Below, piece by piece: positions 503-52,490 of a stretch of 64,000 nucleotides of DNA. The stretch covers positions 6,385-70,384 of the IMG/VR virus record IMGVR_UViG_3300028631_000429. One strand, given 5' to 3'. The notes under the pieces are model-generated. The model was not told where the DNA came from. It worked only from the letters and a program-made list of their open reading frames with translations, and made no database searches. Position 1 is the first letter of the stretch. Every line of letters begins with the position of its first letter. Both the position numbers and the translations under genes were made by a program. The stretch comes from a virus. Taxonomy: Duplodnaviria; Caudoviricetes.

Positions 503-1234
503 CTATTTAAGAATTCTGTTAAAATTATTTTTTATAACTTTAGAAATATCTTCTAATGACAGATTTCTTGTTTTAGCTAGATAAGAATATATTTCATCTA
601 CAAAAAATAAATCATATCTATCTTTTAAACCATACGTAAATGGAGCATCACTCTCTATCAGTATTTTATCTACTGGAATAGTATCAATTATCCTCTTGCC
701 AGAACTGCTACGAACCATTTGTTGGTTTATAGAAAAATAATAGCCTCTTTCAAGTGCATTCTTTAGTTCTCCAATTGATCCGGAATACCAATGTAAAATA
801 ACAGCCCCTTGAAAGCCTTTCAAGACATCCATTACTTCTTTCTGCGCTTTTCTTGAATGAATGCTAAGAATTTTATTTTTATGCTCGCTACAAATCTGAA
901 TAATATCTGAAAATATTTTTACCTGACTTTTTCTGTTATTCAAATCAGGTGTTGAAAAATCCAATCCTATTTCCCCTATATATCTTGTTTTATCAACATT
1001 TTTGATAAAAATGGATAACTGATCCTGATATTCACAAGCAAGCTCTGGGTGAAATCCGAGCGCCAGCTTCATATACTTATACTGTTGATAGTCTGGATAA
1101 TACTTTTCAAATAGGACTGGTAGGTTAGTAACAGCTATTGTATATGATCTCATGCATTCAATATAATCCGCTACAGCCTTTCTATCTCTATATAAGTCAA
1201 AATGCATATGTGCATCCATGGAAAAGGAAATCAT
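503..1234 (-). CDS. qatD: QatD, TatD-family nuclease
   Basis: TatD motifs DAHMH, GFHP, IGEIGLD, SIHSR, ILHWY, LIESDAPF; last gene of a four-gene overlapping operon. Confidence 0.92.
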   Translation of the reverse strand: MISFSMDAHMHFDLYRDRKAVADYIECMRSYTIAVTNLPVLFEKYYPDYQQYKYMKLALGFHPELACEYQDQLSIFIKNVDKTRYIGEIGLDFSTPDLNNRKSQVKIFSDIIQICSEHKNKILSIHSRKAQKEVMDVLKGFQGAVILHWYSGSIGELKNALERGYYFSINQQMVRSSSGKRIIDTIPVDKILIESDAPFTYGLKDRYDLFFVDEIYSYLAKTRNLSLEDISKVIKNNFNRILK

Positions 1235-2514
1235 TCTATGTCCTCCAAATATTCCATGATCTCGTTCATTCCCCTAATGTATAGCTGTGTGAATTGGTCG
1301 ATATTTTCCGTAATAGCTCCAGATTTCTGAATAGTCATAAATGCATACTTAGGATTGAATTTCTCAATTCCCATTCTATATGAGTTTAAATTCATTTTTG
1401 CAGTTTCACCACTAACAAATCTATTATCTCGATAAGAACTTTCGTCATGAAAACCTGACTTTTTGATTGCTGCCTGTCTGATTACACACGGCAAGCAATA
1501 GCCACAATGCCTTGCCTGAGTTTCTTTTAACATTCTGCCGTTATCTGGATGTGAGCATGACATTGTGTTATCTAAGTTGTTTTGTAAAAAGTCTTGATTC
1601 ATGCAATTTAATAACATCTCACCTTTTGTATGGAATTGATATGGATTCTTTAATGTTATAAGAATTCCTAAATTATTTAATAGTTTTTGAAAAAGCTTTA
1701 AATAATATGGATGCGTAGTTCTCGTACTGCTGGTGCCAAATCTTGAAAATGTGAGCGGAATATTCAATGATATCAAACCATTTTCGGGAATTAACAAATC
1801 TATCGGTTTTCCTAAAGAAGAGGCAACAGTAATAGCATGTGCAAAGAACATAAACGAGCGTGTTCTTGTTGTATCCTCCACTCCATTTACTACTTTTGCA
1901 TAATATTGATGAAAATCCCGTGTTTCTATACCATATTTTTTAATGATTCTTTCTTTTAATATGTCTTGGTATTCTTTTGTTCCTTTTCCACCACCATAAT
2001 GGCTAATGAATAGATTATTACCATGACTATTTTCCAAAAGATCAACCGCTCCTACAAAAGAATCCAAACCACCTGAAAACATACAAACTCGATCATAATT
2101 CTTTGCTATTTTTTTAGACTTTTCCATTCTTTCTTTATGGTTAATCTCTCTTGCTGTAAGTTCTCTCTTTCTAAAATGAAATGTCCAGTAATCACCACTT
2201 AAAAAACTAATCATTTTTTCGAGTAATCCACAATTTAACTCCCATTTTTCAAATTCCAATACGGGGATATATAGTTCCATCTTTCTGCTCCAGCCATCTA
2301 TCGAATTACTACGCAATACTATTCTATCAGCTGCAAAGACTGCTAAAGAGATATATAGCAAATCAATAGATTCCAATCCATACCACTGCGGCATTTTATT
2401 TTTATTGTTCCAGAAGGTAAAGGAGAAACTACTGTCATTTGCAAAGTTTATCATAACATCTTGATTTTCCGGGATAAATTCATCGTCATTATCTGTTCTA
2501 AAATTTATAATCAT
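1231..2514 (-). CDS. qatC: QatC, QueC-like ATP pyrophosphatase
   Basis: SGGLDS PP-loop, TRTRSFMF, SCSHP and HCGYCLPC Zn cluster; between qatB and qatD. Confidence 0.92.
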   Translation of the reverse strand: MIINFRTDNDDEFIPENQDVMINFANDSSFSFTFWNNKNKMPQWYGLESIDLLYISLAVFAADRIVLRSNSIDGWSRKMELYIPVLEFEKWELNCGLLEKMISFLSGDYWTFHFRKRELTAREINHKERMEKSKKIAKNYDRVCMFSGGLDSFVGAVDLLENSHGNNLFISHYGGGKGTKEYQDILKERIIKKYGIETRDFHQYYAKVVNGVEDTTRTRSFMFFAHAITVASSLGKPIDLLIPENGLISLNIPLTFSRFGTSSTRTTHPYYLKLFQKLLNNLGILITLKNPYQFHTKGEMLLNCMNQDFLQNNLDNTMSCSHPDNGRMLKETQARHCGYCLPCVIRQAAIKKSGFHDESSYRDNRFVSGETAKMNLNSYRMGIEKFNPKYAFMTIQKSGAITENIDQFTQLYIRGMNEIMEYLEDIE

Positions 2515-3278
2515 AATGTACCCTCCAATACTTCAAGGCATTTACCATAAAGTTCTGTAATGGATGCGCGAACATCCTGATTTATAATATCCCCTTTTTT
2601 CCCAAACTCAACTCTCACAGTACTAAATATATACCCTTTGAATTCTTGTTCCAGAGATTGAGTTTGCTTAGAATCATCTATATATTTTTCAAATCTACTT
2701 CCCAAATCTTTCATCATCAATGCCCATATATATGCTCCAACATATTCGTATAGAGCCTCATTCATTAAATTGAGTGGCATCTTATCTAAGCATTCTAAAT
2801 CCATCTTATTATTCTCAACATAATCATATACTTTTGACAACGCTTCTTCTGCAGCTTCTTTTGCAACAATATCTTCTTTTGTATTAGAAGCCGGAGCAAG
2901 TACATTTATTAACTGAGAAAATATATCTTCTACACTTCTGCCTGAGAATTCTATTCCCAGATTTCTAAATGTTGTAGCAAATCCATCGGTTCGGATACCA
3001 TTGAAGAATGTCCCTAATCCACTACCCGTACGAATGCCAGAAGTTGATTGAGCTGCCATCCTATGGGAACCACCAGATGCCTTAATATACTGTTTTGCAA
3101 TATGGCTTGCGGAACCCCTATGACCGCCACTATTAATAAACTTTGACATATCCGATTTTACAGTCTTCCATTTCACTGGAGCATTTTGAATAATATCACT
3201 TTTCTGTTCTCCATCGTAGTCATCTGGCAACAATGGATTTCTATCATTTTTACCATGATATATACTTGAAGTTCCCAT
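2511..3278 (-). CDS. qatB: QatB
   Basis: N-terminus MGTSS...PLLP typical of QatB; position between KAP NTPase and QueC-like gene. Confidence 0.85.
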   Translation of the reverse strand: MGTSSIYHGKNDRNPLLPDDYDGEQKSDIIQNAPVKWKTVKSDMSKFINSGGHRGSASHIAKQYIKASGGSHRMAAQSTSGIRTGSGLGTFFNGIRTDGFATTFRNLGIEFSGRSVEDIFSQLINVLAPASNTKEDIVAKEAAEEALSKVYDYVENNKMDLECLDKMPLNLMNEALYEYVGAYIWALMMKDLGSRFEKYIDDSKQTQSLEQEFKGYIFSTVRVEFGKKGDIINQDVRASITELYGKCLEVLEGTL

Positions 3279-3290
3279 ACACTTCCCCCC

Positions 3291-5105
3291 TTATTTTAAT
3301 TCTTTAAACACAGCCTTTAACCTGTCGTTGTCTATAATCCAAGCATCTGCAATCTCTTTCATTTCTAAAACTTTATGGGACTTTTGGGCAAAAGCAACAA
3401 GCATTGGTGCAAATCCCATCGTAATCTGACTTCCTTTAAGCGATTTAAGATGTGCAAATGTTTCTGCATACAAGCTTTCTCTTGAACCCCCCCAAGCAAT
3501 AAAGGCATCAAATTTAACTTTATCTATACTGGTGTCTGCAATTATAGAATTAAATACTGCTTCCAAAATTTTCGCCGCCTCACTGTCACCAATCGTATTG
3601 GCTTTACTAATAGCATTCTTCAATTGTAAGTCAGACTTAGAAATTAACTTATCAAAGATATCTTGTGCTGTCGGAGACAATTTTGAACTCATATATTTTA
3701 CTTTTTCATCAAGTGATGTTCTGGTAAAATAAAAATATAATGTTAAATCTTCATTAGCTAATTTAGGTTCTATTTTACACCAGTTTTGTACCCAAACATC
3801 ATCCTTCCAAATTTTAAGAGCTTCTAACTCTTCTGACTTTTCTTCTTCAAATATAGATAACTCTTTAGATAGAATGCCAGCAGCGGACAATTCAGCAATA
3901 GACTTAAATAAGCTTGGCTTTATGTATTCTAACATCATGATTTTTGCCAACACTTTACGATCCAGGGTTTTGTGCTTATATTTAGCCATCTTAATACGCA
4001 TATCGAGGGAATTCAAAAATCTTTTGCATTGTCGTGGGTTTCCACTTAATCCCTTGGACAATACACTCGCAAGCTGTTTTGCAACAATCATACCTTCTGT
4101 AGCTTTTAATTTTAATTCCTCTTCTTCAACAACTCCATCAATAACTTTTTTTAGAGAAAACTGTGTAAAATCTTCAAGTCTGTCATTATTAATTTTTTCT
4201 ATTATGGTATTAAATATTTCATTTGGTAGCTCTTCTTGGAAAAGTAAACATGCAATATAAATTTCGACTTCATCTTCATTCAATTTTGGTATTCTGATCG
4301 GATATTGAATTAGTTTTTCAAGATATTCTTTACCAATACTAATCTGACTGCCTTCAATTTCTTTATACTTACTATTTACGGCATAAGAAATGTGACGTTC
4401 ATCTGCCCCAATGACAAAGGCTACTTTCCCATGAAACATAAATAGTTTCATAGCTTCCAAAGTATCCAAAATCGTATTAGGATTGCACCTATCTAATTCA
4501 TCAATGAATACAACCAGCCTTGAAATTTTTGTAGCCTCTAGTAATTTTTCAAATTCCTGTTGAAACTTACGAATATCCTCACGCAATTCTTTGTTATTTA
4601 ATTCATCATTAATTGCTGCTTTAATTTCATCAAAATCAATATCATCTGCTTGATCTGATATCTGCTTTACTACAGAATTAATTGTTATATCAGCAAGAGT
4701 TCCTAAACCACCTGTAAGCAGTAAATCTGCCCCTACTTTAACCCCTTTTCTTACAAGTTTAAATTTATCAACACTATCATATAAACCTTTTAAGATGTTT
4801 TTTGCCTTTGAAGACATTCTTTTTTGCTTTGCTATCTCATCTAAAATAGAACCTAAAATTGCAGACTTAGCATCGTCATAGCTTTCAAAAAGCCATCCAT
4901 TAAACACAAGGCATTTAATTTTTTCATCTTCCTCTTCAAGTCTTTTCTTACACATATACATAAGACTTGATTTACCACTTCCCCAATCCCCATAGACGCC
5001 TATACTGGCAGGAAGTAAATTATCATCAGTAATGGTATGTTTTAAAACATTAATTAAATAATCATAATCTAAAAAATCAAGCTCTGTTTCACTATCCTTC
5101 CACAT
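3291..5105 (-). CDS. qatA: QatA, KAP-family P-loop NTPase
   Basis: Walker A GDWGSGKSS, Walker B VFIDELDRC, YLEKLIQ, GNPRQCKRFLN KAP motifs. Confidence 0.92.
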   Translation of the reverse strand: MWKDSETELDFLDYDYLINVLKHTITDDNLLPASIGVYGDWGSGKSSLMYMCKKRLEEEDEKIKCLVFNGWLFESYDDAKSAILGSILDEIAKQKRMSSKAKNILKGLYDSVDKFKLVRKGVKVGADLLLTGGLGTLADITINSVVKQISDQADDIDFDEIKAAINDELNNKELREDIRKFQQEFEKLLEATKISRLVVFIDELDRCNPNTILDTLEAMKLFMFHGKVAFVIGADERHISYAVNSKYKEIEGSQISIGKEYLEKLIQYPIRIPKLNEDEVEIYIACLLFQEELPNEIFNTIIEKINNDRLEDFTQFSLKKVIDGVVEEEELKLKATEGMIVAKQLASVLSKGLSGNPRQCKRFLNSLDMRIKMAKYKHKTLDRKVLAKIMMLEYIKPSLFKSIAELSAAGILSKELSIFEEEKSEELEALKIWKDDVWVQNWCKIEPKLANEDLTLYFYFTRTSLDEKVKYMSSKLSPTAQDIFDKLISKSDLQLKNAISKANTIGDSEAAKILEAVFNSIIADTSIDKVKFDAFIAWGGSRESLYAETFAHLKSLKGSQITMGFAPMLVAFAQKSHKVLEMKEIADAWIIDNDRLKAVFKELK

Positions 5106-5403: not shown

Positions 5404-7050
5404 TTAATCTTCATAAAACTCAATCTCTTGTTCCATAATGATGCCATATTTAAAGTGAATTTCAATTTTGGATTCATTTATTACCTTGATTCTAAGTATC
5501 AAGCGTCTGATTAAATCCTCATCAAACTCTCCGACCCTGCAGCTTACCCTGCCAAGGTAAGAGTCCATCCCATCCACCCTTTGCTCATACTCGCCGGCCA
5601 ACTTCTGTTCTCTTGCCAGCTTTAATTTTTTCATCTTGAGGGTTTGCATTTCTTCTGCAATTTTTCTATACTGTTCATGAAAATCTTCATTGATGGCCCC
5701 TTGCTTGGCATTTTCTTCGATTAAGGTAAGGAGCTGTTTTTGCAGCTTGGTAATTTCCTCATCAAACTCTGTTTTTATGTTTTTTGTTGTGTAGTTACCA
5801 ATCACTCGGATTACATTCTCTCTGAATGCTCCTACAACCTCCCTTTGATTTTCTACTACACTGTCCACAGCCTTCATAATTGCTTCGTGCAGGGGTTTTT
5901 CTTTTAAGGTGGCGGAATGCTTACAAGTTTTTGTTCCGTTTAACAATCGGCTTTCACATCGCCACACGGGAGTAAGATTTCCATTCCTTGACCAGGTCTG
6001 CCTACGATAAGGGTGGGAGCATTCTCCGCAGACAAGAATGTCTGAGAGTACATATTTAGAACTGTACTTACTTTTTTCTTTTTTAGCCCGTCTGGCAATG
6101 GACGGCTTATGAAGGCTTGCCCGTCTTGCTCTTTCTTCCTGCACTTGGTAAAAAAGCTCTTTTGGGATAATTGCTTCATGGTTATCCTCAATATAATATT
6201 GAGGTACGATGCCGTCATTCTTCACTCTCTTTTTTGTAAGGAAATCAACTGTATATGTCTTTTGCTGCAGGACATCGCCCATATACTTTTCGTTCTGGAG
6301 TATCTTTGCGATGACAGTATCATGCCATTTATCTTTTCCTGTTACCGTCTTAATACCATCTGCCATAAAGGTATTCGCTATCTGCTGTGTACTTAGCCCT
6401 TCAAGGTAAAGACGATAGATTCTTCTGACTAACTTCGCTTGTTCCGGTACGATGACCAGCTCGCCATCCTCATCTTTTGTGTATCCTAAAAACTTCTTAT
6501 GATTGACCAGCACCACACCGTTTTCATATCTTCTTGCGATTCCCCAGCGCGTGTTTTCACTTAAGTTACGGCTTTCTTCTTGTGCTTGGCTACTTAAAAT
6601 GGTGATTAAAAGTTCACCTGTCGCCTCCAGTGTATTGACACCTTCTTTTTCAAAAATGATGCCGATATTTTTCTCCTTGAGCTTTCTTATGGTTTGCAGG
6701 GAATCTACTGTATTTCTTGCGAAACGACTGACTGATTTGGTTAGTATTAAGTCTATTTTTCCTGCCATGCAGTCATCAATCATGGAGTTAAAGTCATCCC
6801 TCTTTTTCATATTGGTTGCAGACTTCCCATCATCTGCATAAATGCCTGCCAGCTTCCAGTTTGGATTCTGCTGAATTTTCTCTGTATAATAAGATATCTG
6901 AGCATCGTAACTGCTTTCCTGCTGTTCCAGCAAAGTGCTGACTCTACAGTAAGCTGCTACTCTTAATGCTTTTAGCTGTACTTTGATGTTCCTGTCATAA
7001 GCTGGTTGTGAAGGTATGATAGATACATTTTTCTTTTTAACTGCTTGCAC
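5404..7050 (-). CDS. Large serine recombinase (TndX/CcrB-like)
   Basis: Catalytic AAYCRVST, KSVSRFARN, recombinase domain, CxxC Zn ribbon. Start moved to GTG 7050 behind RBS AAAGGGGG. Confidence 0.93.
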   Translation of the reverse strand: MQAVKKKNVSIIPSQPAYDRNIKVQLKALRVAAYCRVSTLLEQQESSYDAQISYYTEKIQQNPNWKLAGIYADDGKSATNMKKRDDFNSMIDDCMAGKIDLILTKSVSRFARNTVDSLQTIRKLKEKNIGIIFEKEGVNTLEATGELLITILSSQAQEESRNLSENTRWGIARRYENGVVLVNHKKFLGYTKDEDGELVIVPEQAKLVRRIYRLYLEGLSTQQIANTFMADGIKTVTGKDKWHDTVIAKILQNEKYMGDVLQQKTYTVDFLTKKRVKNDGIVPQYYIEDNHEAIIPKELFYQVQEERARRASLHKPSIARRAKKEKSKYSSKYVLSDILVCGECSHPYRRQTWSRNGNLTPVWRCESRLLNGTKTCKHSATLKEKPLHEAIMKAVDSVVENQREVVGAFRENVIRVIGNYTTKNIKTEFDEEITKLQKQLLTLIEENAKQGAINEDFHEQYRKIAEEMQTLKMKKLKLAREQKLAGEYEQRVDGMDSYLGRVSCRVGEFDEDLIRRLILRIKVINESKIEIHFKYGIIMEQEIEFYED

Positions 7051-7960
7051 ATTTATCCCCCTTTCTATAAGTTTCATGGACAGTAAGTCCATGAATAAAT
7101 TCTATTTCAACTCGTCCATCTTCATAGATGACCAGTTTTTTGACTGTCTGTAAAAATAATTCTTCATGAAATTCTGTTTGCTGTTTCCTATTTGAAAGGG
7201 CTTGCTTTATGTTTTTTGTATGATGGTCATAATCATAAACCTGCGCAGTTTGATAAAGGAGTGCTGCCCTTTGAAAAATCATCGTCGCCAGCTCCTTGGA
7301 GGAAAATTGTTCGTCTGCTTCCATGTCTTTAACCCTTTGATCAAGCTTCCAGAATTCTGGTGAATAACGCTTTGGAGCCTCCTTTTGTTTCTTCTGCAGT
7401 AAAGAAGGTGTTCTTATTATCTTGTTTACCGCAGAAATAAAAACTTCTTTTATTTGCTCGTCCGTAATTACCCCACAGATACATTGGACCCTGTTTTTAT
7501 AAATATAATGCTTGCACTTCCATTTGCTTTTTTCAGAAGGTTTTCCACAGTTCTCTGTATATTTTCTGAATACCTCTCTGCACTCACCGCACCAAAGTCT
7601 GCCACTGAATGGGCTTTGATTATTCATGCTATTTGGCTGCATAAGCCGTCCAAGCTTTTTGCGCTGTTCCTTTCTACGGTTCTGTACCTGTTCAAAAATT
7701 TCCGTTTCTATCATCTGCGGATACATCTCATCGCCTAAATACTTTATGTTTTCTAAAATTTTGCCAACAGAGCCATGATTCCAAGATGGTTTGTTGTTTG
7801 CGTTTGGAACTCCCTTTGCTGTAAGTTCCTTTGCTATTGCATAGGTAGAGCTTCCTGAAAGGTAATTGTCAAAAACCTCTCTTACAACCTTTGCTTTTTC
7901 TTCTTCAACATATATCTTTCCGTTTCGCATCCGAAACCCTATAGGTGTGTGCCTTTGCAT
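7037..7960 (-). CDS. Recombinase-domain protein without catalytic resolvase domain
   Basis: Starts at PIGF (recombinase domain), has CGEC Zn ribbon, no YxRxS. ATG 7960 behind AAGGAGG. Confidence 0.85.
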   Translation of the reverse strand: MQRHTPIGFRMRNGKIYVEEEKAKVVREVFDNYLSGSSTYAIAKELTAKGVPNANNKPSWNHGSVGKILENIKYLGDEMYPQMIETEIFEQVQNRRKEQRKKLGRLMQPNSMNNQSPFSGRLWCGECREVFRKYTENCGKPSEKSKWKCKHYIYKNRVQCICGVITDEQIKEVFISAVNKIIRTPSLLQKKQKEAPKRYSPEFWKLDQRVKDMEADEQFSSKELATMIFQRAALLYQTAQVYDYDHHTKNIKQALSNRKQQTEFHEELFLQTVKKLVIYEDGRVEIEFIHGLTVHETYRKGDKCASS

Positions 7961-9575
7961 CTTTGTTATCCTCCTTTCCACAGTTTTCTGAAAACTCCAG
8001 TTTGTTCTTTAAACGGAAGGTTACAATTTTCCCTTCCTTTATAATAATCTGATCCACTGTTTCTAAAAACAAATCCTCACGGTATGTATCCTGTATCCCT
8101 GGATTGCTTTCCAACAGTCCTATAAGTTGTTCAGTATAAAAAATTTCTGTTTCAAATCCGCTGTCATCAAGCAGGCCTTTCCTCTTTTTTCGCATGGAAT
8201 CCAACTCTATTTGCAGGGCAGTCTGCTTCTCTATAAAAATAGCAGGGTCAAGATATCCTTTTGCAGCTACGCCGCTTAAGATATGACTCTGCTTTGAAAG
8301 TTCCATTATTTTTTCATTACATTCTCTGATGTCCTTTTCCTGCTGTTCATCAGCACGCAGCTTTCGTAAGGATTCCAGCATCGGAGAAAGGATTTCTAAA
8401 TAATTCCCGGAGAGCTTATTCCACATCAAGATAAATGCTTCTTTTATAATATCCTCCCGGATTGCTATCATGCTGCATTTTTCTTTATCTTCAATGTGCT
8501 GGATACAAGACCATTGCACTTTCTCATAAGGCTTTCCGATATAAATTTTCTGCCTCCTGAACACCTTTCCGCATTCCCCGCATATAATTTTGCTACTGTA
8601 GGCATAACGGTTTTGTGATTTTATACCATCGACCTTCATTTGCTTGCGGCGGTATTCATAAATTTCCCTGACCGCTTCTGCCTCTTCCATACTGATAATG
8701 GGTTCATGATTCTCAGAAATAAAATACTGAGGTAGCTCACCCTTATTTCTTTTTCTCCTAAAGGGGATTACCTCAGTAGTAAATGTCTTTTGCAATATTA
8801 AGTTTCCTGTATAGATTGGGTTAAGAAGAATTTCTTTTACCACCCCTTCTGACCATCTTTCAGCACCTCGTATGGTTTGTATTCCTTTCTCACTCAATTC
8901 CCTCGCAATAACATAGGAGCCTTTGCCGTTTAGATACTGTTTGAAAATATAGCGGACAGTTTCAGCTTCTTGTTCCTCAATAATCAGCTCACCTCTTTCA
9001 TCTTTAACATATCCGAGGGCAGGAGTTCCTATCTTAAAGGTACCGTCTTGAAACCGTTTAATCGCCGCCCACTTGTTGTTTGTTGAAATGCTTTCTGCCT
9101 CTCCTTGCGCTAAGGAGCTTAAGATGGTCAAGAGCATTTCACTGCTCTCAAATAATGTATTAATATTCTCTTTCTCGAAAAACACTGCAATACCAAGCAG
9201 TTTCAGCTTACGGATTGCCTTTATACTGTCAACGGTATTTCTTGCGAAGCGGGTTACTGATTTTGTGATGATCATATCAATTTTTCCAGCTTCACAATCT
9301 TTTATCATGCGTAGAAAGTCATCCCTTTTCTGCAGCTTCGTCCCACTTCGAGCTTCGTCTGCATAAACCCCGACATACTGCCAATCACTTCTTTTGCTAA
9401 TTAGTTCTTCATAATAGGCAGTCTGCGCAGTAAATGAATTCTGCTGCTCTCTTGAATCAGTACTGACACGACAGTAAGCACAAACCCGTTTTTGCGGCTG
9501 AAGTTGCATTATAACCTGAGGTTTCACAGGATTAATTTTGGTTATCTTTTTTGCTTTTTTCTGTTTGCCTGCCAT
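7905..9575 (-). CDS. Large serine recombinase
   Basis: CAYCRVST, KSVTRFARN, CGEC Zn ribbon. ATG 9575 behind AAGGAGG. Confidence 0.93.
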   Translation of the reverse strand: MAGKQKKAKKITKINPVKPQVIMQLQPQKRVCAYCRVSTDSREQQNSFTAQTAYYEELISKRSDWQYVGVYADEARSGTKLQKRDDFLRMIKDCEAGKIDMIITKSVTRFARNTVDSIKAIRKLKLLGIAVFFEKENINTLFESSEMLLTILSSLAQGEAESISTNNKWAAIKRFQDGTFKIGTPALGYVKDERGELIIEEQEAETVRYIFKQYLNGKGSYVIARELSEKGIQTIRGAERWSEGVVKEILLNPIYTGNLILQKTFTTEVIPFRRKRNKGELPQYFISENHEPIISMEEAEAVREIYEYRRKQMKVDGIKSQNRYAYSSKIICGECGKVFRRQKIYIGKPYEKVQWSCIQHIEDKEKCSMIAIREDIIKEAFILMWNKLSGNYLEILSPMLESLRKLRADEQQEKDIRECNEKIMELSKQSHILSGVAAKGYLDPAIFIEKQTALQIELDSMRKKRKGLLDDSGFETEIFYTEQLIGLLESNPGIQDTYREDLFLETVDQIIIKEGKIVTFRLKNKLEFSENCGKEDNKDAKAHTYRVSDAKRKDIC

Positions 9576-9655
9576 GTTCTTTTCCTCCTTTCTAACAGAT
9601 TTTCCTTCTGTTAGCAACACACATTACCACACAAGTTTTGGAATAGCTACTGTTA

Positions 9656-9817
9656 TTACACATATACTTTTGCAAGTTGAGGAAGAAATGTTTGGCGGTT
9701 CAAAGCATCAATTTCTTCATATTCTTCATTGGTGATTAAATCGTTACGAAGCAGGATTCCCAGGTACTTCAATGTGATTTTATATTTAACTTCATTAGCT
9801 GTTTGCTCTTTTGACAC
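9656..9817 (-). CDS. Small SHOCT-like protein (53 aa)
   Basis: RBS AGGGGG, GTG start, MSKEQTANEVKYKITLKYLGILLRNDLITNEEYEEIDALNRQTF; LIT-EEY pattern is SHOCT-like. Not in the ORF track. Confidence 0.75.
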   Translation of the reverse strand: MSKEQTANEVKYKITLKYLGILLRNDLITNEEYEEIDALNRQTFLPQLAKVYV

Positions 9818-9865
9818 AAATATAACCCCCTATATCTAATGTACTTTTTCCTTTTCATAACCGTA

Positions 9866-10252
9866 TCATTTTATCCGTATAACCTTGGCAGTTGATAACC
9901 CTAAACTTAGGGACAATGCCTGATCAATTGAAATCATCCGCAACTCACTCAGACTTCCTATGTATTCCAAAAGCCGGATGCGATCAATAGTACGTATCTG
10001 TTCCAGCAGTACCACCGAATTTTTCTGTAACGGCTCCATACACCCAATTTCCACATGTGTGGGCAGTTCCTTTTTTGGCTTGCTGGTTATAGCTACTACA
10101 ATGACTGTGGGGCTGTAACGGTTTCCTATATCATTCTGTATAATAAGCACGGGGCGAATACCACCTTGCTCACAGCCCACCACTGGGCTTAAATCAGCAT
10201 AAAAAATATCTCCGCGCCTTATAATTCTTTTTTGTTCTTGCAAAATATGCAC
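9866..10252 (-). CDS. mazF: MazF/PemK (EndoA-like) endoribonuclease toxin
   Basis: [46 protein letters not shown] and EQIRTID; RBS AAGGAGG. Confidence 0.92.
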
Positions 10253-10280
10253 CTCCTTTTATTTGCTTAATGGCACAAAA

Positions 10281-10337
10281 ATGCAAACCGCTCTGCTTTG
10301 CGATTACTCTGCTTGCGTATACAGAGCGGTTTGCATG
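10281..10337 (-). terminator. Terminator-like hairpin just upstream of mazF
   Basis: 15-bp perfect stem ATGCAAACCGCTCTG/CAGAGCGGTTTGCAT followed by TTTT on the minus strand. Confidence 0.6.
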
Positions 10338-10339
10338 GA

Positions 10340-10750
10340 TTCTGACATTAAGTTTTTTCTCTGTGCTTAATTCGACACTACTCCCCAAGCACCAATGGCA
10401 ACAACTTAAACTGCGGTTGGCTAAACCGCATCATGGGACTTTCACCCTCGCCGGGATCTCCGCCGACTGCCCTCATTGCGTAATCCCCCGTTTAAGGGGG
10501 GCTGTGACTGGACAGAAGTATCATTATAGGCTGACGGGATTATTGCGAAACAGGCTGCCACAGCCTGTTTTACCATCGGATGGGTACCGCTTTGCACCTT
10601 GTTTGGCCGTCTTTGATAGGATTTAATTTTTTCATTGGAATCCTACAGGTGGTCTTGGCGCATCCCCGGAAGTCGCTTTGCCTTTTATGGCACCGTCAGC
10701 TAAAGTATTTAAGTTGTCGGATATGAAATTTTCAAAGAACAATCGGGGTA
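10340..10750 (-). ncRNA. Candidate large structured RNA or leader between sigma-like gene and mazF
   Basis: No credible ORF; hairpins at 10412-10430, 10435-10447, 10485-10501, 10548-10570, 10617-10645 and an 8-bp long-range pair 10530-10537/10693-10700. Confidence 0.5.
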
Positions 10751-10756
10751 TAAAAA

Positions 10757-10793
10757 AACCCCTTCACTACTAATCCGGTTTCGTGAAGGGGTT
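10757..10793 (-). terminator. Hairpin after sigma-like gene
   Basis: 11-bp perfect IR AACCCCTTCAC/GTGAAGGGGTT with T-run on the minus strand. Confidence 0.55.
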
Positions 10794-10807
10794 GGACCAA
10801 ATTATTT

Positions 10808-11257
10808 TTAGTTTTCTAAAAGTTTTTTTAATCTGGCCAGTATTCGCTTCTTCCTATTATGGATTGTCATGCGTGGAATGCCGGTTTCCGCTGCCAGCTG
10901 GTGCTCGCTTTTATTCTGGAAAAACAAAGAGAAAATCAATTCTTGTTCCTCCTTTGGCAGTTGCGCAAGACACTTATGAAGTTCTTCCGCGATAAGCCTG
11001 TCTACCACAATATCCTCCACACGGGGCGAGATTAAATCAGGGATTGCATCCTCTCCATTAGTTTCACTTGTATCCAGGGCACTATAAAAGAACACACCAT
11101 GTTTTGCATCCTTTTCTTGTAGATGAAGTTCACGGCGTCTCATACGGTAATAAGTCAAATAGACTTCCTCTGTTACAGGCACTAGCTTATCTTGTACTCT
11201 TATCTGGTACTTCTTTTTTACTATGTGTTGTTTTGAAAGTTTTCTATGTTCCTTCAT
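10808..11257 (-). CDS. Sigma-70 region 4 DNA-binding protein (Tn916 Orf7-like)
   Basis: C-terminal LHKCLAQLPKEEQELIFSLFFQNKSEHQLAAETGIPRMTIHNRKKRILARL region-4 HTH; regulatory module context. Confidence 0.88.
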   Translation of the reverse strand: MKEHRKLSKQHIVKKKYQIRVQDKLVPVTEEVYLTYYRMRRRELHLQEKDAKHGVFFYSALDTSETNGEDAIPDLISPRVEDIVVDRLIAEELHKCLAQLPKEEQELIFSLFFQNKSEHQLAAETGIPRMTIHNRKKRILARLKKLLEN

Positions 11258-11289
11258 TTAAATCGACTCCTTTGGATTTCAAATTTTTG

Positions 11290-11390
11290 AAATCCGCCAG
11301 AGCCGCCGAATCCGCAAAATGAAACAAGACGGCAGGAGAACCCCCTTTGTCAGAGGATTCCGCACTGCCGTCTTGCGTTCTGGCGGATTT
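11290..11390. promoter_or_regulatory. Nested inverted repeats in the leader of the sigma-like gene
   Basis: AAATCCGCCAGA(11290)/TCTGGCGGATTT(11379) enclosing CAAGACGGCAG(11325)/CTGCCGTCTTG(11365). Confidence 0.55.
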
Positions 11391-25111: not shown

Positions 25112-26941
25112 TTAAGATGTCCGTACATGGGTGCGGCGCTTTGATGTATCTGTTTGTGGTTCGGTAACAGGGGTATGCAAAGTACCAGTGCCGCCCTCTT
25201 CCTCCAATAATTCACCAGTTTCAGTATCAACAGCGACAAATGCTGAATGACGGCGCATTATATTTTCCTCTAGTATTTGTTTATCTGCATAGTTGACCTT
25301 TCGATGGGCACGTTCTGCTACTGTATAAACACTATCAAAGGTAATGCCCCAATCTAAGAATAAACTCAGCTTGGCTTTCATGGGATGAGTGCCGGTTTTC
25401 ATGACTACGAAGTTTCCTTTTGGAATAGACTTCAGTTCATCTGCTGTCATGAGAGGACGCTCCATCATCTGTAAAGATTGGCTGGGGTCATTTTTGCCGC
25501 GGCTGATGCTACCACTCATGACGGTACGGCTGCCCATCGCCTTGGACAGTACCTCGGCAGTCTGGCTGTTGGGTGCAAAGCCACCGAAGATAGTATCCTG
25601 GCAGTTATCAACGATAATTTCGGAGCCTTCTTTCCCATAGTTTTTTTCAAGCTGGCCAAAACTTTGAATGATAGGTACCATGGTCAGGCGGCGGGAACGG
25701 CTGGCAGAAAAAATCAGTTCCAGCGAATCAATTGCAGGAAGTGTACCAAGCTCATCACAGTAAAATACTACTCTGTTTTTCAGCTTACCTTCATTTTCAT
25801 CGGCTACTGCTAAAATTTCACGATAGAGCTGTTGAATCATCAGGCTGACCATAAAATATTTCGTTAAATCTTCTTCCGGGAGAACAATAAATAATGCTGA
25901 TTTTTCATTTACAAACTTTTCTGCATCCACGGCTGTATCAAAACACAAAATCTGCTCCATCTCGGAATCAAGAAAAGAATTTAGCCTTGAGAGTACCGTA
26001 GAGAGAACAGACATCATGGCTTGCTCTGCTGAGTTGAGTGCCGCCCCTGCAAACCATCGTGCTTTATGGTCTCCGGGGAGCTTATCCATTAAAAGCTGGA
26101 ACTGGCTTTTACCTTTCACTTTGCTTGGAGCAAGTAAATCCTGCACCAATTTGAATACGCTTATAATGTGACGACAATCAGTGATTGAGCCATCCCCATT
26201 TTTTGTCGGAGGAAGATATTCTGCGATTAACAAAATCACAGCAGTAAGAAGTCCTTCGGCGGCATCATAGAAAAACTGATTTTGTCCGTAATTTTCGCCA
26301 CCCGCATTGATTATGGTTTTGGCAATAATCTTTGCATATTTTTCTGACTTAGCTTTCGCAACAAGATTCCTTTCATCAGCTCTATGTGAATCCATATATT
26401 TATTAACAAGGTGAAGCATATTGTTACCATCCGAGCGGGTTGGATTACGTAAATCAATGACTGCCACATGGTAGCCATAGTAGTCACGGGCAATAGCTCC
26501 GTAATTTCGATAGAGATCTCCTTTGGTATCGGTGGTGAGAAAGCTCATGCCGCTGGCACAGGCATATTCAAGGTTAGGATAAAGAAAAAAAGCAGTCTTA
26601 CCCACACCGGATGCACCAATCATCAGGCAATGGACATCATCTGTGTCTACCAGTGCAGTAAGTTCATTTTTCTTGCCTGTGCTTCCAAGGATTAACCCCT
26701 GCTGATTAACTTGAGGTAGTGCCATACCCCTTCTCCACTCCTTTGGCTTAAATGGAATGTGTTTGTAGGTGCTTTTGATTTCATTCTTGGTAGCAAATCT
26801 TGCTGTACCATGTTGCCCATCACCCACTGTACGGGATTTGATTCCATTGAGGGTATAGTAATGAGCTAAAAGCGAAAGACCGCCGATGACTGAAAACATC
26901 ACGGCGGTCGCTGCTATGAGAATATAAACTTGAGATATCAT
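25112..26941 (-). CDS. virD4: VirD4-like type IV coupling protein
   Basis: N-terminal TM, GQHGTARFA, Walker A GASGVGKT, Walker B YCDELG, IIQSFGQL. Confidence 0.93.
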   Translation of the reverse strand: MISQVYILIAATAVMFSVIGGLSLLAHYYTLNGIKSRTVGDGQHGTARFATKNEIKSTYKHIPFKPKEWRRGMALPQVNQQGLILGSTGKKNELTALVDTDDVHCLMIGASGVGKTAFFLYPNLEYACASGMSFLTTDTKGDLYRNYGAIARDYYGYHVAVIDLRNPTRSDGNNMLHLVNKYMDSHRADERNLVAKAKSEKYAKIIAKTIINAGGENYGQNQFFYDAAEGLLTAVILLIAEYLPPTKNGDGSITDCRHIISVFKLVQDLLAPSKVKGKSQFQLLMDKLPGDHKARWFAGAALNSAEQAMMSVLSTVLSRLNSFLDSEMEQILCFDTAVDAEKFVNEKSALFIVLPEEDLTKYFMVSLMIQQLYREILAVADENEGKLKNRVVFYCDELGTLPAIDSLELIFSASRSRRLTMVPIIQSFGQLEKNYGKEGSEIIVDNCQDTIFGGFAPNSQTAEVLSKAMGSRTVMSGSISRGKNDPSQSLQMMERPLMTADELKSIPKGNFVVMKTGTHPMKAKLSLFLDWGITFDSVYTVAERAHRKVNYADKQILEENIMRRHSAFVAVDTETGELLEEEGGTGTLHTPVTEPQTDTSKRRTHVRTS

Positions 26942-28045: not shown

Positions 28046-30706
28046 TTATATGGTGTGCATAGACTGTTCATGATCATCTTGCTTTTGACCCTGCGCCTGC
28101 TTCTTAGCCCTTATCTTCTGCAAGAGTTTCCGATCGGCACGCTGGTTCGGCGGTATTCTTGCCGGTGGGGTGTCACCGATAATGCGGCTCATATGGTGTA
28201 GTAACCTTGTAGCTGCCAGCATCACAGACGGTTCTTTAAACTCATCTATATGGTCAAGAAAAAACTGAGCATAGATGTTACCCTGCGCTGCCGAGAGTGT
28301 GAACCACTTTACGGCTTCTTCTTTATCTTTCAGAATATCTTTCCCCATCAGATAAAGCTTTCCAAGAGTGTACTGGGCATATTGATTACCTTGATTTGCA
28401 GAAGCGGTCAAATATTGCAAAGCTGTTTCCACATTCTTTGAGACATCCTCGCCTGTAAGATAAAGCTTTCCAAGGCGGTATTCGGCAAATTCGTTCCCAT
28501 TTATAGCTGCGCTTTTTAAATATGAAATTGCCTTTGCTACATCCTTTGGAACATCCTCACCTTTTAGATAAAGGCAACCGAGAGCATATTCTGCAAACTG
28601 ATTTTTCTGCTGGGCAGAAATACTAAACCAACGCAAGGCCTCAGGGATATCTTTTAAGATACCCTCACCGCCCAAGTACAGCTTGCCAAGCTGATAGGCG
28701 GCAAAGGAGTTTCCCACCAATGCCGCTTTTTCAAAATAACTTCGTGCCTGCAGTATATCCTTTTCCGTACCGATACCATTTAGGAGCATCCAGCCAAGAC
28801 GATATTGAAGCTTATCATCATGACTTTGTTTTTCCAAGGAAGTAAATCCATGAAATGCATCTGAAAAATGTTTTTGCGCTTTCTCTTCATTTTTATCACA
28901 GCCAATGCCATCACGAAGCATTTTACCTGTTTCAAAGCTGGCATAAGGAAAACCCTGTTTAGCTGAGTGCAGGTACAGTTCAAAGGCGGTTTGGTAATCT
29001 TGTTCTACACCGTTACCCCTATAATAAAGACCAGCAAGAGAATACTCCGCATATTTATATTTTTCACTTGCCGATTGTGTAAGCCACTGAGCGGCTTTCA
29101 TATAATCCTGTTCTGCACCAAAGCCCGCTGCATACATTTTCCCAATGCGATACTGGGTATATTTCCAAGGTTTTTCAGATTCTGCAGCATGGAATATTGT
29201 GAGTGCCTTTTCATACCACTGATGTGATTTATCAGCATCTTCACTGCATCCAAGACCATCCGCATTCATTCTGCCAATGTCATACATGGCAAGAGGATTA
29301 TTCAGCTCTGCTTCCAAAAGTAACAGACTATAGGCCTTTTCAAAATCCTGCGTAATTCCGGCATCCTCATCACCATAGAAAAATTGCTTTGCTTGCTTAT
29401 AGTCCCCGCTCCACCATGAAGGGCTTCGGCTTTTACCATGATGACTATTCTCTTTCTTATGCGGTTCAAAGCCGTCTTGAATATCGTCTGCATTTTCCGG
29501 CAGAAAATAGTCGGGCGGCATACTACTATCAACAGGGGGTTCGGGTATAATAGCATCTGCTGTTTCTGATTCATCAAAGATAAATTCCCCTTTTGAAATT
29601 TCCATTGCTTCTTTTATAACCATGTTACGAATAGATTTAAAGTCACTGCATTTTGAAAGCGGCAATTGCTGAGATGGTGTTTCGGTATAGATATTCTCAA
29701 TCTGCCCCTTTGCTTTTTGCCATAGGGTATAGGCTTTAGCCACTCTTTCATCCTTGGCAAGCTCATCTACAATTTCATCCACCACATTTTTTAGTTCTGC
29801 TTTGAGATAGCCATATTGTTTTTTTCCTGTGGTATGTTTCAGACACTCCGCAAGATAGGTGATAAGCTCTTCAATTTTTTCGTTTCTAAGTGTATCACTT
29901 TGCATTTGTATCAGCAGTTTTCGAAGTGCAGTGCGTGTTTCTTTAGTAAGATTATCCCGCTTTTGAGTTTTTTCTCCGTATAAAGGTATCAGCTCCTGTC
30001 GGAAAATTTCCGTTGAAAGAGCTGATTTCATTTTGCGAATCCCCGGCTTAGTAAGGTATCCTTCATTTGGATTTGTGCTGTAACAAATCATATGGACATG
30101 AGGGTGGTGGCTCTCATTATGAAATGCCGCATACCATTTCAGATTGTCCGGATGAATTTTAAGGCTTTCCGCAAGGTCAATCGCCTTTGAAGAAATCAGC
30201 GACTTCCAGCTATCGGCGTTTTCGAATCCAAATTTTTCAGCATCCTCACGGCGAAGGGAAATAATCGGTGTCCACACATTACCGGTATGCTCTGCAATCT
30301 CTTTTGCAGCCTGTGAGAGAATAAGCGGATGCTCTCCGACTGCAAACAAACCATGGGTATCAAACTTTTCCACTCTGGGACGGTTTGCGATGTAATCAAG
30401 ATATTTTTCTTTATCACCGATTTGTTCAATGTGCTGTTCCAATGTGATAGAAATAAATTCAGAAGCATTTTCACGATTTGGCTCGGCAAGGTAGTCCTCA
30501 TATTCCAGTGACTCCTTGCTATCGGGAATTTCTCGAATGATTTGAGTAATAAGCAATTGCTGCTTTTTGGTGCTATTCCAAAGTGCCTTAGCATTAGAAA
30601 CTTTTTCTACACCATCACGGGTGGCAATATATTTGACCAGATGATTTAGATGGGATGCGGCTTTTCCGCCTTTTAGATAACCATTTTTAATAACCAGTCT
30701 TGCCAT
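28046..30706 (-). CDS. MobP3/MobL-type relaxase with about nine Sel1-like repeats
   Basis: YIATRDGVE, YIANRPRV, HUH motif AAFHNESHHPHVH; repeated (F/Y)AxYxLGxxYxxGxGVxxD units. Confidence 0.9.
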   Translation of the reverse strand: MARLVIKNGYLKGGKAASHLNHLVKYIATRDGVEKVSNAKALWNSTKKQQLLITQIIREIPDSKESLEYEDYLAEPNRENASEFISITLEQHIEQIGDKEKYLDYIANRPRVEKFDTHGLFAVGEHPLILSQAAKEIAEHTGNVWTPIISLRREDAEKFGFENADSWKSLISSKAIDLAESLKIHPDNLKWYAAFHNESHHPHVHMICYSTNPNEGYLTKPGIRKMKSALSTEIFRQELIPLYGEKTQKRDNLTKETRTALRKLLIQMQSDTLRNEKIEELITYLAECLKHTTGKKQYGYLKAELKNVVDEIVDELAKDERVAKAYTLWQKAKGQIENIYTETPSQQLPLSKCSDFKSIRNMVIKEAMEISKGEFIFDESETADAIIPEPPVDSSMPPDYFLPENADDIQDGFEPHKKENSHHGKSRSPSWWSGDYKQAKQFFYGDEDAGITQDFEKAYSLLLLEAELNNPLAMYDIGRMNADGLGCSEDADKSHQWYEKALTIFHAAESEKPWKYTQYRIGKMYAAGFGAEQDYMKAAQWLTQSASEKYKYAEYSLAGLYYRGNGVEQDYQTAFELYLHSAKQGFPYASFETGKMLRDGIGCDKNEEKAQKHFSDAFHGFTSLEKQSHDDKLQYRLGWMLLNGIGTEKDILQARSYFEKAALVGNSFAAYQLGKLYLGGEGILKDIPEALRWFSISAQQKNQFAEYALGCLYLKGEDVPKDVAKAISYLKSAAINGNEFAEYRLGKLYLTGEDVSKNVETALQYLTASANQGNQYAQYTLGKLYLMGKDILKDKEEAVKWFTLSAAQGNIYAQFFLDHIDEFKEPSVMLAATRLLHHMSRIIGDTPPARIPPNQRADRKLLQKIRAKKQAQGQKQDDHEQSMHTI

Positions 30707-36042: not shown

Positions 36043-37881
36043 TCATCTTCCGCCTGCTTTCCCAAACAGTTTTTCCTTATAGGCCGGTGCGTGAACGGCA
36101 AGATTGTATCGCTCAATACCGCATTTATATAGACATACTCCACGCTGGGGAAAGCGGATGAGATTATATTCCGATTCCTCAAGCTGGAGAGAATCAATAT
36201 AAAACTGTTTATCAATGTTGCCTGCGTTAAAAAGAAAAGCGTGAGTCGGAATAGAGAACAATGGCTTTGTCAATTCTCTGATCCCTTCAATATTAAAGTC
36301 CTCAAGATTCTGTGATGCTAAAATGACCGCCGATTCCTTCTTTCGCACACGCTTCATAAAGTTTCGGATGTACTCAATGGCGGTGAGGTTCGTAAGGAAT
36401 AGATATAGCTCATCAATGCTGGCGACAGTGTTGCCTTCGGTCAGGAGCTTATCACTCATAAAGGATAAAACATTAAAGAGCAGAGCATTCTTCACATTTC
36501 TGCTTGCCTGCAAAAGTCCTTTTACTCCAAACACAATAAAGCGGTCACTGGTGACATTGGTGTGTCCATTAAAAAATTTACTTTCCGCACCCATGCACAT
36601 AGAGTGAAGCCCCAAAAGGATTTCCTGCAGCAACTCTGCCGTATAAAGCTGGTGTTTGCTGCTGTCGTAACCCTTATATTCACCCTCAATCAGTTCATAT
36701 AGATTGGAGAGGATGGGATAATCCTCAGTATTTAATTTTGTGAAATTGGTGCTGTCACTGATATTAAAATTCCCGTAGAGCTTACCCAACATAATTTCGA
36801 TGGTGTCAATGTGGCGGTCATCAAAATCCTTGTAGCAGCGAAAAAAGTCTTTAAGAAAAGATATATGCTGGCTGAGCTTTGTGCGCTGCAGAAAGGCCTG
36901 GGGAGCATCTCTATCACCAAAGCTTCCGTTTTCATCCCATGCCTTTGGTTCTAATGGATTGATTATATACTGACCGGACATGAGGTCGATAAAGCACCCG
37001 CCGAGATTTTCTGCAAGCTCCACATATTCATGCTCTGGGTCTAAGCACAGAACAGTCTTACCAGATTCCAGTACATTGCACAGGATCAATTTAAGCAGAT
37101 AGCTTTTGCCCTGACCGCTGTTACCAAGGATTAGGATGTTGGCATTGGTCTTGTCGTCATCACGCTTATCAAAATCCACAATAATATTGCTTCCGAACTT
37201 ATCCCTACCAAGGTAGAAACCGCCGGGGTCGGTCTTGCCGGAATAGTTAAAGGGGTAAAGATTCGCCACGCTGCTGGCAGGCAAAACCCGTTCATACTGA
37301 CTCCCAAACACATTATGTCCGGCAGGGCCTACAGCAAGAAAACCCTCCCGCTGGCGCAGAATCAAGCGATCCACATTGAGCTTTGATCGTACCAGCTCTG
37401 TTAAAACATCGGTCTGCAGGAGTTTCAGTGCATCAAGATTGTGGGCTGTCAGCTCAATGTAAACAGCACAGTGCAACAGGGGTTCTCGGTTTCTGTGCAT
37501 GGCTGATACCAAGGTAACCACATCCTGTAGATTGCTTTCGGCGGTGACGGTCTGCTGAAGATTACTGGTGTTACTTTTATCCATACGATTTTTATTGGCC
37601 GCATTATGAATGATTTTCTTTTCTTCTCCTGCCGTAACCTGTCTTGTATAGATGCGTAGGGTTACACCGTCCTTTTCGCCTAAATGCCGCAGGATTGCCT
37701 GCTCATCGGTTGCTGTTGGATATTCTCGCAGCACCCAGACACAGCGAAAGGTATTTCCGCAAATAAAATGATCCACATTAAATTTAATAACACCGGGTGC
37801 TATCATATCGAGGAAATCTTTAATTTTTGTATCCTCGGCCGATACTACAACTTTTTTCTTTCTGGCTTTACTCACCGACAA
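36043..37881 (-). CDS. virB4: VirB4-like conjugation ATPase
   Basis: Walker A GNSGQGKS, DPEHEY, Walker B SIDELY, RKKESAVILASQN. Confidence 0.93.
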   Translation of the reverse strand: MSVSKARKKKVVVSAEDTKIKDFLDMIAPGVIKFNVDHFICGNTFRCVWVLREYPTATDEQAILRHLGEKDGVTLRIYTRQVTAGEEKKIIHNAANKNRMDKSNTSNLQQTVTAESNLQDVVTLVSAMHRNREPLLHCAVYIELTAHNLDALKLLQTDVLTELVRSKLNVDRLILRQREGFLAVGPAGHNVFGSQYERVLPASSVANLYPFNYSGKTDPGGFYLGRDKFGSNIIVDFDKRDDDKTNANILILGNSGQGKSYLLKLILCNVLESGKTVLCLDPEHEYVELAENLGGCFIDLMSGQYIINPLEPKAWDENGSFGDRDAPQAFLQRTKLSQHISFLKDFFRCYKDFDDRHIDTIEIMLGKLYGNFNISDSTNFTKLNTEDYPILSNLYELIEGEYKGYDSSKHQLYTAELLQEILLGLHSMCMGAESKFFNGHTNVTSDRFIVFGVKGLLQASRNVKNALLFNVLSFMSDKLLTEGNTVASIDELYLFLTNLTAIEYIRNFMKRVRKKESAVILASQNLEDFNIEGIRELTKPLFSIPTHAFLFNAGNIDKQFYIDSLQLEESEYNLIRFPQRGVCLYKCGIERYNLAVHAPAYKEKLFGKAGGR

Positions 37882-51560: not shown

Positions 51561-52490
51561 TTACCTCCTGTATTCTATTGGCTGGGTCAGCTTGATAACA
51601 AATGCCGTGGAAATGAAAATAACAGCGGCACAGATCGTCAAAACAATCTGCCCCAGGAGGGTGTGCATTAAGGTGTGATACCAATCTTTGTTCAAAAAAT
51701 ATAAGAGAGGAATGTTTCCTACTACCAGAACCTGCATGATAATAAATTCTTTACGAGGTTCAAACACCATATTCTCCAGTTCACCATTGACCACACGCAT
51801 ATCGCTGAGCTTGCTTACAATAGGTGTCAGGGTGGTTTTTAGACTCCTGTCCTGCTGGCAGGCAATAATGGCATCGCACCATTCTCGAAACACAGCGTTA
51901 TCTATTTGTTCTTTCAGGTCGTGGAGTGCAGCTGTAACATCGGGGTTTACCAGCTTGACCCTTGATACAAATCCACGAAATACATTCAATACCGGCTGGT
52001 TGAGATAAGGGATATTTTCTTCTACCGCTGTTAGAATATCCTCATTTCTCAGATAGGCGGTAGTAATAATGCTAAGTGCTGTTTCAAGCTCCGCGGCTAT
52101 ATCCTTTTTGAAATGCCCGGCAGTCAGCTTCACCCACCAAAAAGGCAGAAACATACATCCTACTGCCATAACAGGGATTAAAAAAATGTTTCCCATCATG
52201 ATTGCGATAGAGGCGCCGATGCAAAAGAACAGCAGAGCCGCCCCACAGAGCACAGGAAATTTTGCCGTCCTGCCTGTGACTTTTAGGATGGCCTGCACCT
52301 CGGCGATTTCACGGCGCAGATAAGATTTCTTTTTGCGGCGAGTGGCTTCATTGATCTCATCACGAAGAGATCTCGGCTTATCATTAAGTTTTGCAAACAC
52401 TCTGTCTGTAAATTCCATAGGTGACAGGTTCAGTAAAATAAAAAAACCTGCTATCATTCCGACGCAGGCAACAAGCTGAATGGTTGTCAT
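51561..52490 (-). CDS. tadB: TadB-like pilus platform protein
   Basis: ELETALSIITTAY, TM segments; directly after the ATPase. Confidence 0.8.
   Translation of the reverse strand: MTTIQLVACVGMIAGFFILLNLSPMEFTDRVFAKLNDKPRSLRDEINEATRRKKKSYLRREIAEVQAILKVTGRTAKFPVLCGAALLFFCIGASIAIMMGNIFLIPVMAVGCMFLPFWWVKLTAGHFKKDIAAELETALSIITTAYLRNEDILTAVEENIPYLNQPVLNVFRGFVSRVKLVNPDVTAALHDLKEQIDNAVFREWCDAIIACQQDRSLKTTLTPIVSKLSDMRVVNGELENMVFEPRKEFIIMQVLVVGNIPLLYFLNKDWYHTLMHTLLGQIVLTICAAVIFISTAFVIKLTQPIEYRR

Follow-up and report, generated by a model that had tools for sequence, protein, structure and literature searches.

The 555-nt spacer (10253-10807, minus strand) between a gene for a sigma-70 region-4 (sigma-r4) protein and pemK in the window (the whole 64,000-nt stretch of a viral record analysed here) contains a non-coding and densely structured RNA of ~470 nt (10266-10735, read on the minus strand), which is probably (at about 0.78) a member of the canT/pemK RNA family that, judging from its analogy with canT of Tn916, acts in cis as a processive antiterminator. 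Homology to the Tn916 canT region, a covarying fold, and the gene layout were all observed. The initial annotation of this DNA had ranked the region among candidates for an undescribed system. Instead, it is another copy of a known RNA family: an Rfam scan identified it as RF02913 (pemK RNA) with 68.7 bits (gathering score 34.8), a clean family match of the kind that the initial annotation had listed as refuting its proposal, and its homologue, canT of Tn916, has already been characterised experimentally (PMC11658703). What the present comparison adds is the apparent equivalence of pemK and canT and a covariation-supported architecture of the whole RNA.

Gene neighbourhood of the RNA

All genes flanking the RNA are located on the minus strand (Table 1). 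The sigma-r4 gene directly upstream occupies the place of Orf7/Sig7 in Tn916, and the similarity of its product to Tn916 Sig7 is marginal (BLASTP E 0.2). The small ORF preceding it has neither a Pfam match nor similarity to Tn916 Sig8; if a split sigma factor is used here, this ORF is the only candidate partner nearby. The sigma gene is followed by an intrinsic terminator, and a hairpin with a U-run is conserved at this place in homologues. No promoter was evident between this terminator and the RNA, where there is no room for a separate one. On the other side, the first gene downstream encodes a PemK/MazF-family toxin, and no antitoxin gene adjoining pemK was found in the ORF list or by Pfam. 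The likely pemK start is a TTG at 10243, 7 nt after AAAGGAGG (the mechanical ORF list gives a GTG at 10252), and the same arrangement of ribosome-binding site and TTG (10243-10262, minus strand) is found in homologues. The SHOCT_2 gene and three large serine recombinase genes that come next (5404-9817, minus strand) have the same transcription direction as the RNA.

Folding of the whole spacer on the minus strand gave a z-score of -6.05 against dinucleotide shuffles, and no conserved reading frame was found on either strand of the RNA region, which agrees with the densely structured non-coding region described initially. An ORF of 118 aa is open antisense to the RNA (10270-10626, plus strand) and mirrors the discredited 'orf5' of Tn916. 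In L004, a 95%-similar locus and the closest relative, it is closed (at most 55-59 aa open in any frame); thus, it is probably spurious. A BLAST search of the plasmid collection with the spacer gave no match, and pattern scans of viral contigs gave mostly chance matches inside coding sequence, ~10 being real.

Table 1. Positions of genes, RNA elements and terminators in the window and, where indicated, in the Tn916-type locus L209
Feature	Position	Strand	Basis or remark
Predicted terminator-like hairpin	62980-62935	-	pattern prediction; 20 bp + T-rich tail; ~1 kb from record end
Predicted terminator	56007-55988	-	pattern prediction
Predicted terminator	54318-54282	-	pattern prediction
VirB11-like ATPase	52487-53914	-	
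VirB4-like ATPase	36043-37881	-	
MobL relaxase	28046-30706	-	
Coupling protein	25112-26941	-	
ORF, 75 aa	11410-11637	-	just upstream of the sigma-r4 gene
Sigma-70 region-4 protein, 149 aa	10808-11257	-	Pfam Sigma70_r4, 2.8e-8
Intrinsic terminator after sigma gene	10750-10793 (stem 10793-10757)	-	fold; 11-bp stem + U7
5' box UUGAAAAUUUCAUAUC	10720-10735	-	conserved in homologues; TTGAAAA start at 10735
P0, outermost long-range helix	10399-10719 (10719-10707 / 10411-10399)	-	13 pairs, 8 compensatory
P1, GCUGACGG / CCGUCAGC	10530-10700 (10700-10693 / 10537-10530)	-	covariation; encloses 155 nt
P1a, hairpin	10691-10680	-	RNAalifold and pair counts
P1b	10676-10673 / 10548-10545	-	RNAalifold and pair counts
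P2	10669-10661 / 10582-10573	-	RNAalifold and pair counts
P2b, CGC/GCG	10660-10658 / 10590-10588	-	3 bp, nearly invariant
P3, variable arm	10651-10595	-	RNAalifold and pair counts
P4, hairpin	10569-10549	-	RNAalifold and pair counts
pemK core: AUAAUGAUACUUC, then three-hairpin junction ending GGGUGAAAGUCCCAUGA	10431-10527	-	RF02913
P5, hairpin UGCGGU-UUAGCCA-ACCGCA	10412-10430	-	6/6 pairs compensatory
P6, hairpin with conserved 18-nt loop GGGGAGUAGUGUCGAAUU	10363-10392	-	5/6 pairs compensatory; window's clade only
P7, CUUAAUGUCA / UGCCAUUAAG	10266-10352 (10352-10343 / 10275-10266)	-	encloses P8; window's clade only
P8, long GC-rich terminator-like hairpin, then UUUUUGUG (U-run)	10341-10277	-	fold; window's clade only
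PemK/MazF-family toxin	9866-10252	-	Pfam PemK_toxin, 9.8e-34; first gene downstream of the RNA
SHOCT_2 small protein, 53 aa	9656-9817	-	Pfam
Large serine recombinase	7905-9620	-	Pfam
Large serine recombinase, middle	7037-7981	-	BLASTP similarity of homologues' recombinase ORFs to it
Large serine recombinase	5404-7092	-	Pfam
L209: Sigma70_r4 (Orf7/Sig7)	560-991		
L209: HTH_16 (Orf8/Sig8)	988-1218		
L209: Tn916-Xis	1679-1882		Tn916 integrase also present
L209: antisense ORF 'orf5', 83 codons			

The Rfam motif is the middle of a larger fold

The RF02913 match is located at 10527-10431 (minus strand), has an E-value of 2.8e-10 for the whole window, and covers model positions 1-61 of 61. No other family reached its gathering score in the whole-window Rfam scan, and a permissive scan of 9800-11300 gave, besides pemK, sub-threshold matches only. 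With pemK starting 179 nt downstream in the same orientation, the match has a cis-regulatory placement. It contains the ATAATGATACTTC box (10527-10515), whose first bases, AUA at 10527-10525, correspond to the canT(S3) site of Tn916, and the GGGU-GAAA-GUCCC element (~10448-10435, minus strand) pointed out in the initial annotation, which turns out to be the third hairpin of the Rfam core. The two boxes named there for similar leaders, a TTGAAAA start (10735) and the ATAATGATACTTC core, are indeed conserved in homologues. The pemK motif comes from a survey of 224 candidates (PMC5737381; pemK is not mentioned in its main text), and its structure was revised in Rfam 15 (PMC11701678). In the searchable literature, the motif appears only in computational work (RNA annotation, structure prediction, and the Rfam 15 update), with no functional study.

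With its 61 positions, the Rfam model accounts for about one-fifth of what is conserved in this RNA and does not include P0-P5; the motif forms just the central part of a more extensive conserved fold, to which P0-P5 and the clade-specific P6-P8 also belong. Upstream of the motif, almost every instance has a fixed order of elements, namely the 5' box, P0, AUAC-n-UUA, and P1, followed by GAGC, CGCCAnGAC, a variable arm, GAGCGA, a hairpin, GCrAUGAC, the 3' strand of P1, and AUAAUGAUACUUC. In the window, the interior of this 5' domain (10545-10691, minus strand) has the conserved strings GAGC, CGCCAAGAC, GAGCG, and GCAAUAAU. The 5' box has the family consensus UUGAmAA..(U)GAAUA or CAUAUCC and tolerates hairpin insertions (L146 and L170), which suggests that it belongs to the RNA rather than being a -35/-10 pair. 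A sigma-70-type promoter composed of the UUGAAAA box and UAAAUA was considered and ruled out, given the hairpins inserted between both in the same two loci; moreover, a start at the UUGAAAA box would exclude the covarying 5' strand of P0.

P0 pairs the leader with the stretch that immediately follows hairpin P5, so that ~295 nt, comprising the 5' domain, the Rfam core, and P5, lie within it. Most of 63 homologues have a perfect helix of 8-13 bp at this position, formed by unrelated sequence, and 41% of the cognate strand pairs exceed the 95th percentile of the scores of non-cognate pairs. P1 is the long-range helix that had been noticed in the sequence from the beginning; ~60 homologues have a helix in the equivalent place, formed by unrelated sequences, and all 6 of its 6 model pairs have changed on both sides (48 sequences). 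The terminator-like hairpins initially reported at both ends are also present, being the sigma-gene terminator and P8, of which a simple terminator scan flags 10305-10286. The 3' strand of P7 sits after the P8 U-run. Two GCAGAG copies lie inside P8 as described; homologues do not conserve this inner part of the hairpin, so the proposed alternative pairing of the copies is probably incidental. For the P6 loop, base pairing with either GAUACUUC or the 5' leader was considered by eye as well and had no covariation support in L170 and L146.

Covariation and strand

The initial annotation had proposed covariation among homologues as a check, and it was found. In an alignment of ten full-length RNAs of the window's clade (470-562 nt), for which the RNAalifold structure was counted, 65 of 116 pairs have compensatory change, including 10 of the 24 pairs of P7/P8, and changes on both sides occur in every named helix except P2b. 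Paired cells amount to 95.2%, whereas column shuffles reach 82.6% and slid controls 36-41%. Some G-U pairs are invariant (for example, UG in 10/10 at the end of P0), and these are compatible with the minus strand only.

For the 5' domain, we built a covariance model (R1) that includes no sequence of the window's clade, using 10 others of which two are Tn916-type. It matches the window at 10515-10712 (minus strand) over the full model length (30.6 bits, E 2e-5), as well as 49 of 58 loci, each match ending 13 nt into the Rfam core. In the 48-sequence alignment of this domain, which was fitted to R1 and thus favours structure, 88.3% of cells are paired versus 57.7% in shuffles. When 33 diverse 5' domains were aligned with MAFFT and folded with RNAalifold, only P1 and P1b were recovered because the inner hairpins were misaligned; the inner helices were resolved by the covariance model and the clade-restricted alignment.

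The pemK motif and canT of Tn916

canT is the conjugation-associated antiterminator of Tn916 (Wirachman & Grossman 2024, PMC11658703). Conjugation depends on it, as does transcription past terminator T1; it is active in one orientation and in cis only, requires no other Tn916 gene, and suppresses unrelated terminators as well as several consecutive ones; orf5 is not needed as a protein (PMC11658703). A 2026 preprint from the same authors reports that Orf7 and Orf8 form a split sigma factor driving a promoter upstream of canT. Neither pemK nor Rfam is mentioned in the text of PMC11658703 or in the preprint, and a link between the pemK motif and canT is absent from the searchable papers.

In our search of Lactobacillales genomes, RF02913 gave a recurrent 101-nt match of 55.0 bits. 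One of these loci, L209, belongs to a Tn916-type element, in which the match (1501-1601) lies in the orf8-xis spacer. We mapped the published canT coordinates, which are counted from the orf8 stop codon (PMC11658703), onto this locus. The active 452-bp canT fragment (nt 126-577) corresponds to L209 1344-1795 and begins exactly at the UUGAAAA box. The deletion canT(Delta162) (nt 229-390; L209 1447-1608) takes away the entire Rfam core as well as P4 and the P1 3' strand, and the substitution canT(S3), AUA to UGC at nt 283, falls on L209 1501-1503, i.e., the first three bases of the motif, where the sequence is ATA. The catalogued pemK motif and canT therefore appear to be one and the same RNA. 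One shorter active fragment (400 bp) is insensitive to the S3 mutation (PMC11658703), which leaves some doubt about what the core contributes to canT. According to the same authors, single-sequence folding failed to explain the canT fragments; the comparative fold P0-P5 supplies the structure model that their approach did not give.

The window RNA and Tn916 canT are similar in size (~470 nt and 452, respectively) and share the Rfam core, the 5' box, and the P0, P1, P2, P4, and P5 architecture. Both are located after sigma gene(s) and before recombinase genes, co-oriented with conjugation genes that are reached only after circularisation. They differ in the downstream genes, which encode PemK, a SHOCT protein, and three serine recombinases in the window but Xis and a tyrosine integrase in Tn916. 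In addition, the window RNA has a longer P3 arm, an extra 3' module (P6-P8) with its own terminator that is absent from Tn916, and, unlike Tn916, a strong terminator separating it from the sigma gene.

Other RNA-only processive antiterminators are put (phage HK022) and EAR (Bacillus eps operons), as cited in PMC11658703. Both have been proposed, as the window RNA is here, to act in cis as nascent transcripts that let RNA polymerase ignore terminators along long operons, but neither has a sequence or structure match to it. The window RNA is much larger than put.

Distribution and gene context of the family

Matches to RF02913 were present in 34 of the 150 Clostridia genomes sampled and in 31 of the 151 from Lactobacillales, frequently with several in the same genome; the 14 control genomes had none. 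Gene contexts were counted in 77 non-redundant instances by comparison with a small protein reference set. A sigma-r4 gene is located upstream in 43 of them, which bears out the statement in the initial annotation that such RNAs follow Orf7-like sigma genes in Firmicute integrative and conjugative elements (ICEs). A recombinase gene follows in 49 (serine type in 32; Tn916-type Int and/or Xis in 17). PemK follows in 12, leaving 65 without PemK downstream, so the name 'pemK RNA' is misleading. The P6-P8 module occurs both with and without PemK: in L164, L170, and L112, the RNA including this 3' module precedes SHOCT and recombinase genes in the absence of PemK. The SHOCT_2 protein therefore probably belongs with the recombinases and not with the toxin. 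Elements that carry a member of the family may have a tyrosine or a serine recombinase, and a MazF toxin may be present or absent, so that the gating of excision and transfer by antitermination may be a general principle among Firmicute ICEs.

Proposed function and alternative explanations

Antitermination by the window element is what we infer from a single, distant homologue that has been characterised. The RNA would be transcribed on the minus strand from a putative start on the sigma-gene side and would adopt a fold in which the outer P0 closes the 5' multi-helix domain, the pemK three-way junction, and P5. If it works as canT does in Tn916, the folded RNA would stay with RNA polymerase and render it resistant to intrinsic terminators. 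The polymerase could then read through P8, the terminator that the RNA itself carries, and transcribe pemK, the SHOCT gene, and the three serine recombinase genes. Once the element has excised and circularised, the polymerase might continue across the joint, past the strong predicted right-end terminator, into the co-oriented conjugation genes (coupling protein, relaxase, and VirB-like ATPases). As the conjugation genes share the minus strand with the RNA and the recombinases, transcription of the circular form would re-enter at the right end, which is the topology of Tn916. Predicted intrinsic terminators (pattern predictions) lie in the downstream path of the RNA, including one near the far element end. 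The hairpin at 62980-62935 is a candidate counterpart of the T1 insulator of Tn916.

A local attenuator or riboswitch, in which the fold would sense a ligand or protein and set only the formation of P8 with no processive effect, is unlikely. Rfam classes the pemK motif as cis-regulatory and, in the window's clade, P8 and its U-run stand right after the RNA and before the first gene, as such a switch would have it. However, most family members, including Tn916, have no P8-like terminator, a conserved alternative (antiterminator) pairing with P8 was not seen, P7 cannot compete during transcription because its 3' strand is made only after the U-run, and Tn916 canT acts on heterologous and multiple terminators (PMC11658703). 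The gating of read-through into toxin and recombinase genes by a conserved RNA, as suggested in the initial annotation, is thus retained as the most likely function, by way of cis-acting processive antitermination, and action in trans or as a ligand switch is unlikely.

We give still less credence to an RNA antitoxin for the antitoxin-less PemK/MazF. Type III toxin-antitoxin loci consist of a structured RNA followed by a terminator and then the toxin, an order that the window resembles, and pemK has no adjoining protein antitoxin gene, yet the distribution of the family disfavours a dedicated antitoxin: PemK comes after so few of its members, and the same RNA precedes SHOCT and recombinase genes in the three loci lacking PemK and xis/int in Tn916. 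Furthermore, RNA antitoxins of type III are tandem repeats that the toxin processes and are always paired with a toxin gene, whereas the region has no tandem repeats, and the MazF cut site UACAU is absent from the spacer. That the region is not an RNA at all, being a small protein gene or a DNA-level site (origin of transfer, attachment site, or operator array), is highly improbable. The 118-aa antisense ORF, with its parallel in Tn916 'orf5', would speak for a protein, but stop-free stretches vary in frame and length among close relatives, orf5 is dispensable as a protein in Tn916, and the helices keep pairing via compensatory changes, with G-U pairs that fit one strand only.

Within the reading as a cis-acting processive antiterminator, it is conceivable, though doubtful, that the antiterminator of the window's clade is not constitutive and that the P6 loop and P7/P8 make passage into the toxin and recombinase genes dependent on a second input. 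This input could be a factor that recognises the strongly conserved P6 loop, or it could be PemK, through an action on its own leader; if true, the clade would have a regulated checkpoint on a processive antiterminator.

A second, divergent RNA of pemK/canT type was also detected in the same record (G000:C1:3105-3205, plus strand; L002 1501-1601; 52.7 bits), ~3.2 kb to the left of where the window begins. A 57-aa ORF and a serine recombinase gene come after it on the plus strand, with no pemK. These converge on the recombinase operon of the window, and four co-oriented minus-strand genes (window 503-5105; putative qatABCD) separate the two. The presence of two RNA copies on one record may reflect two tandem elements or a remnant.
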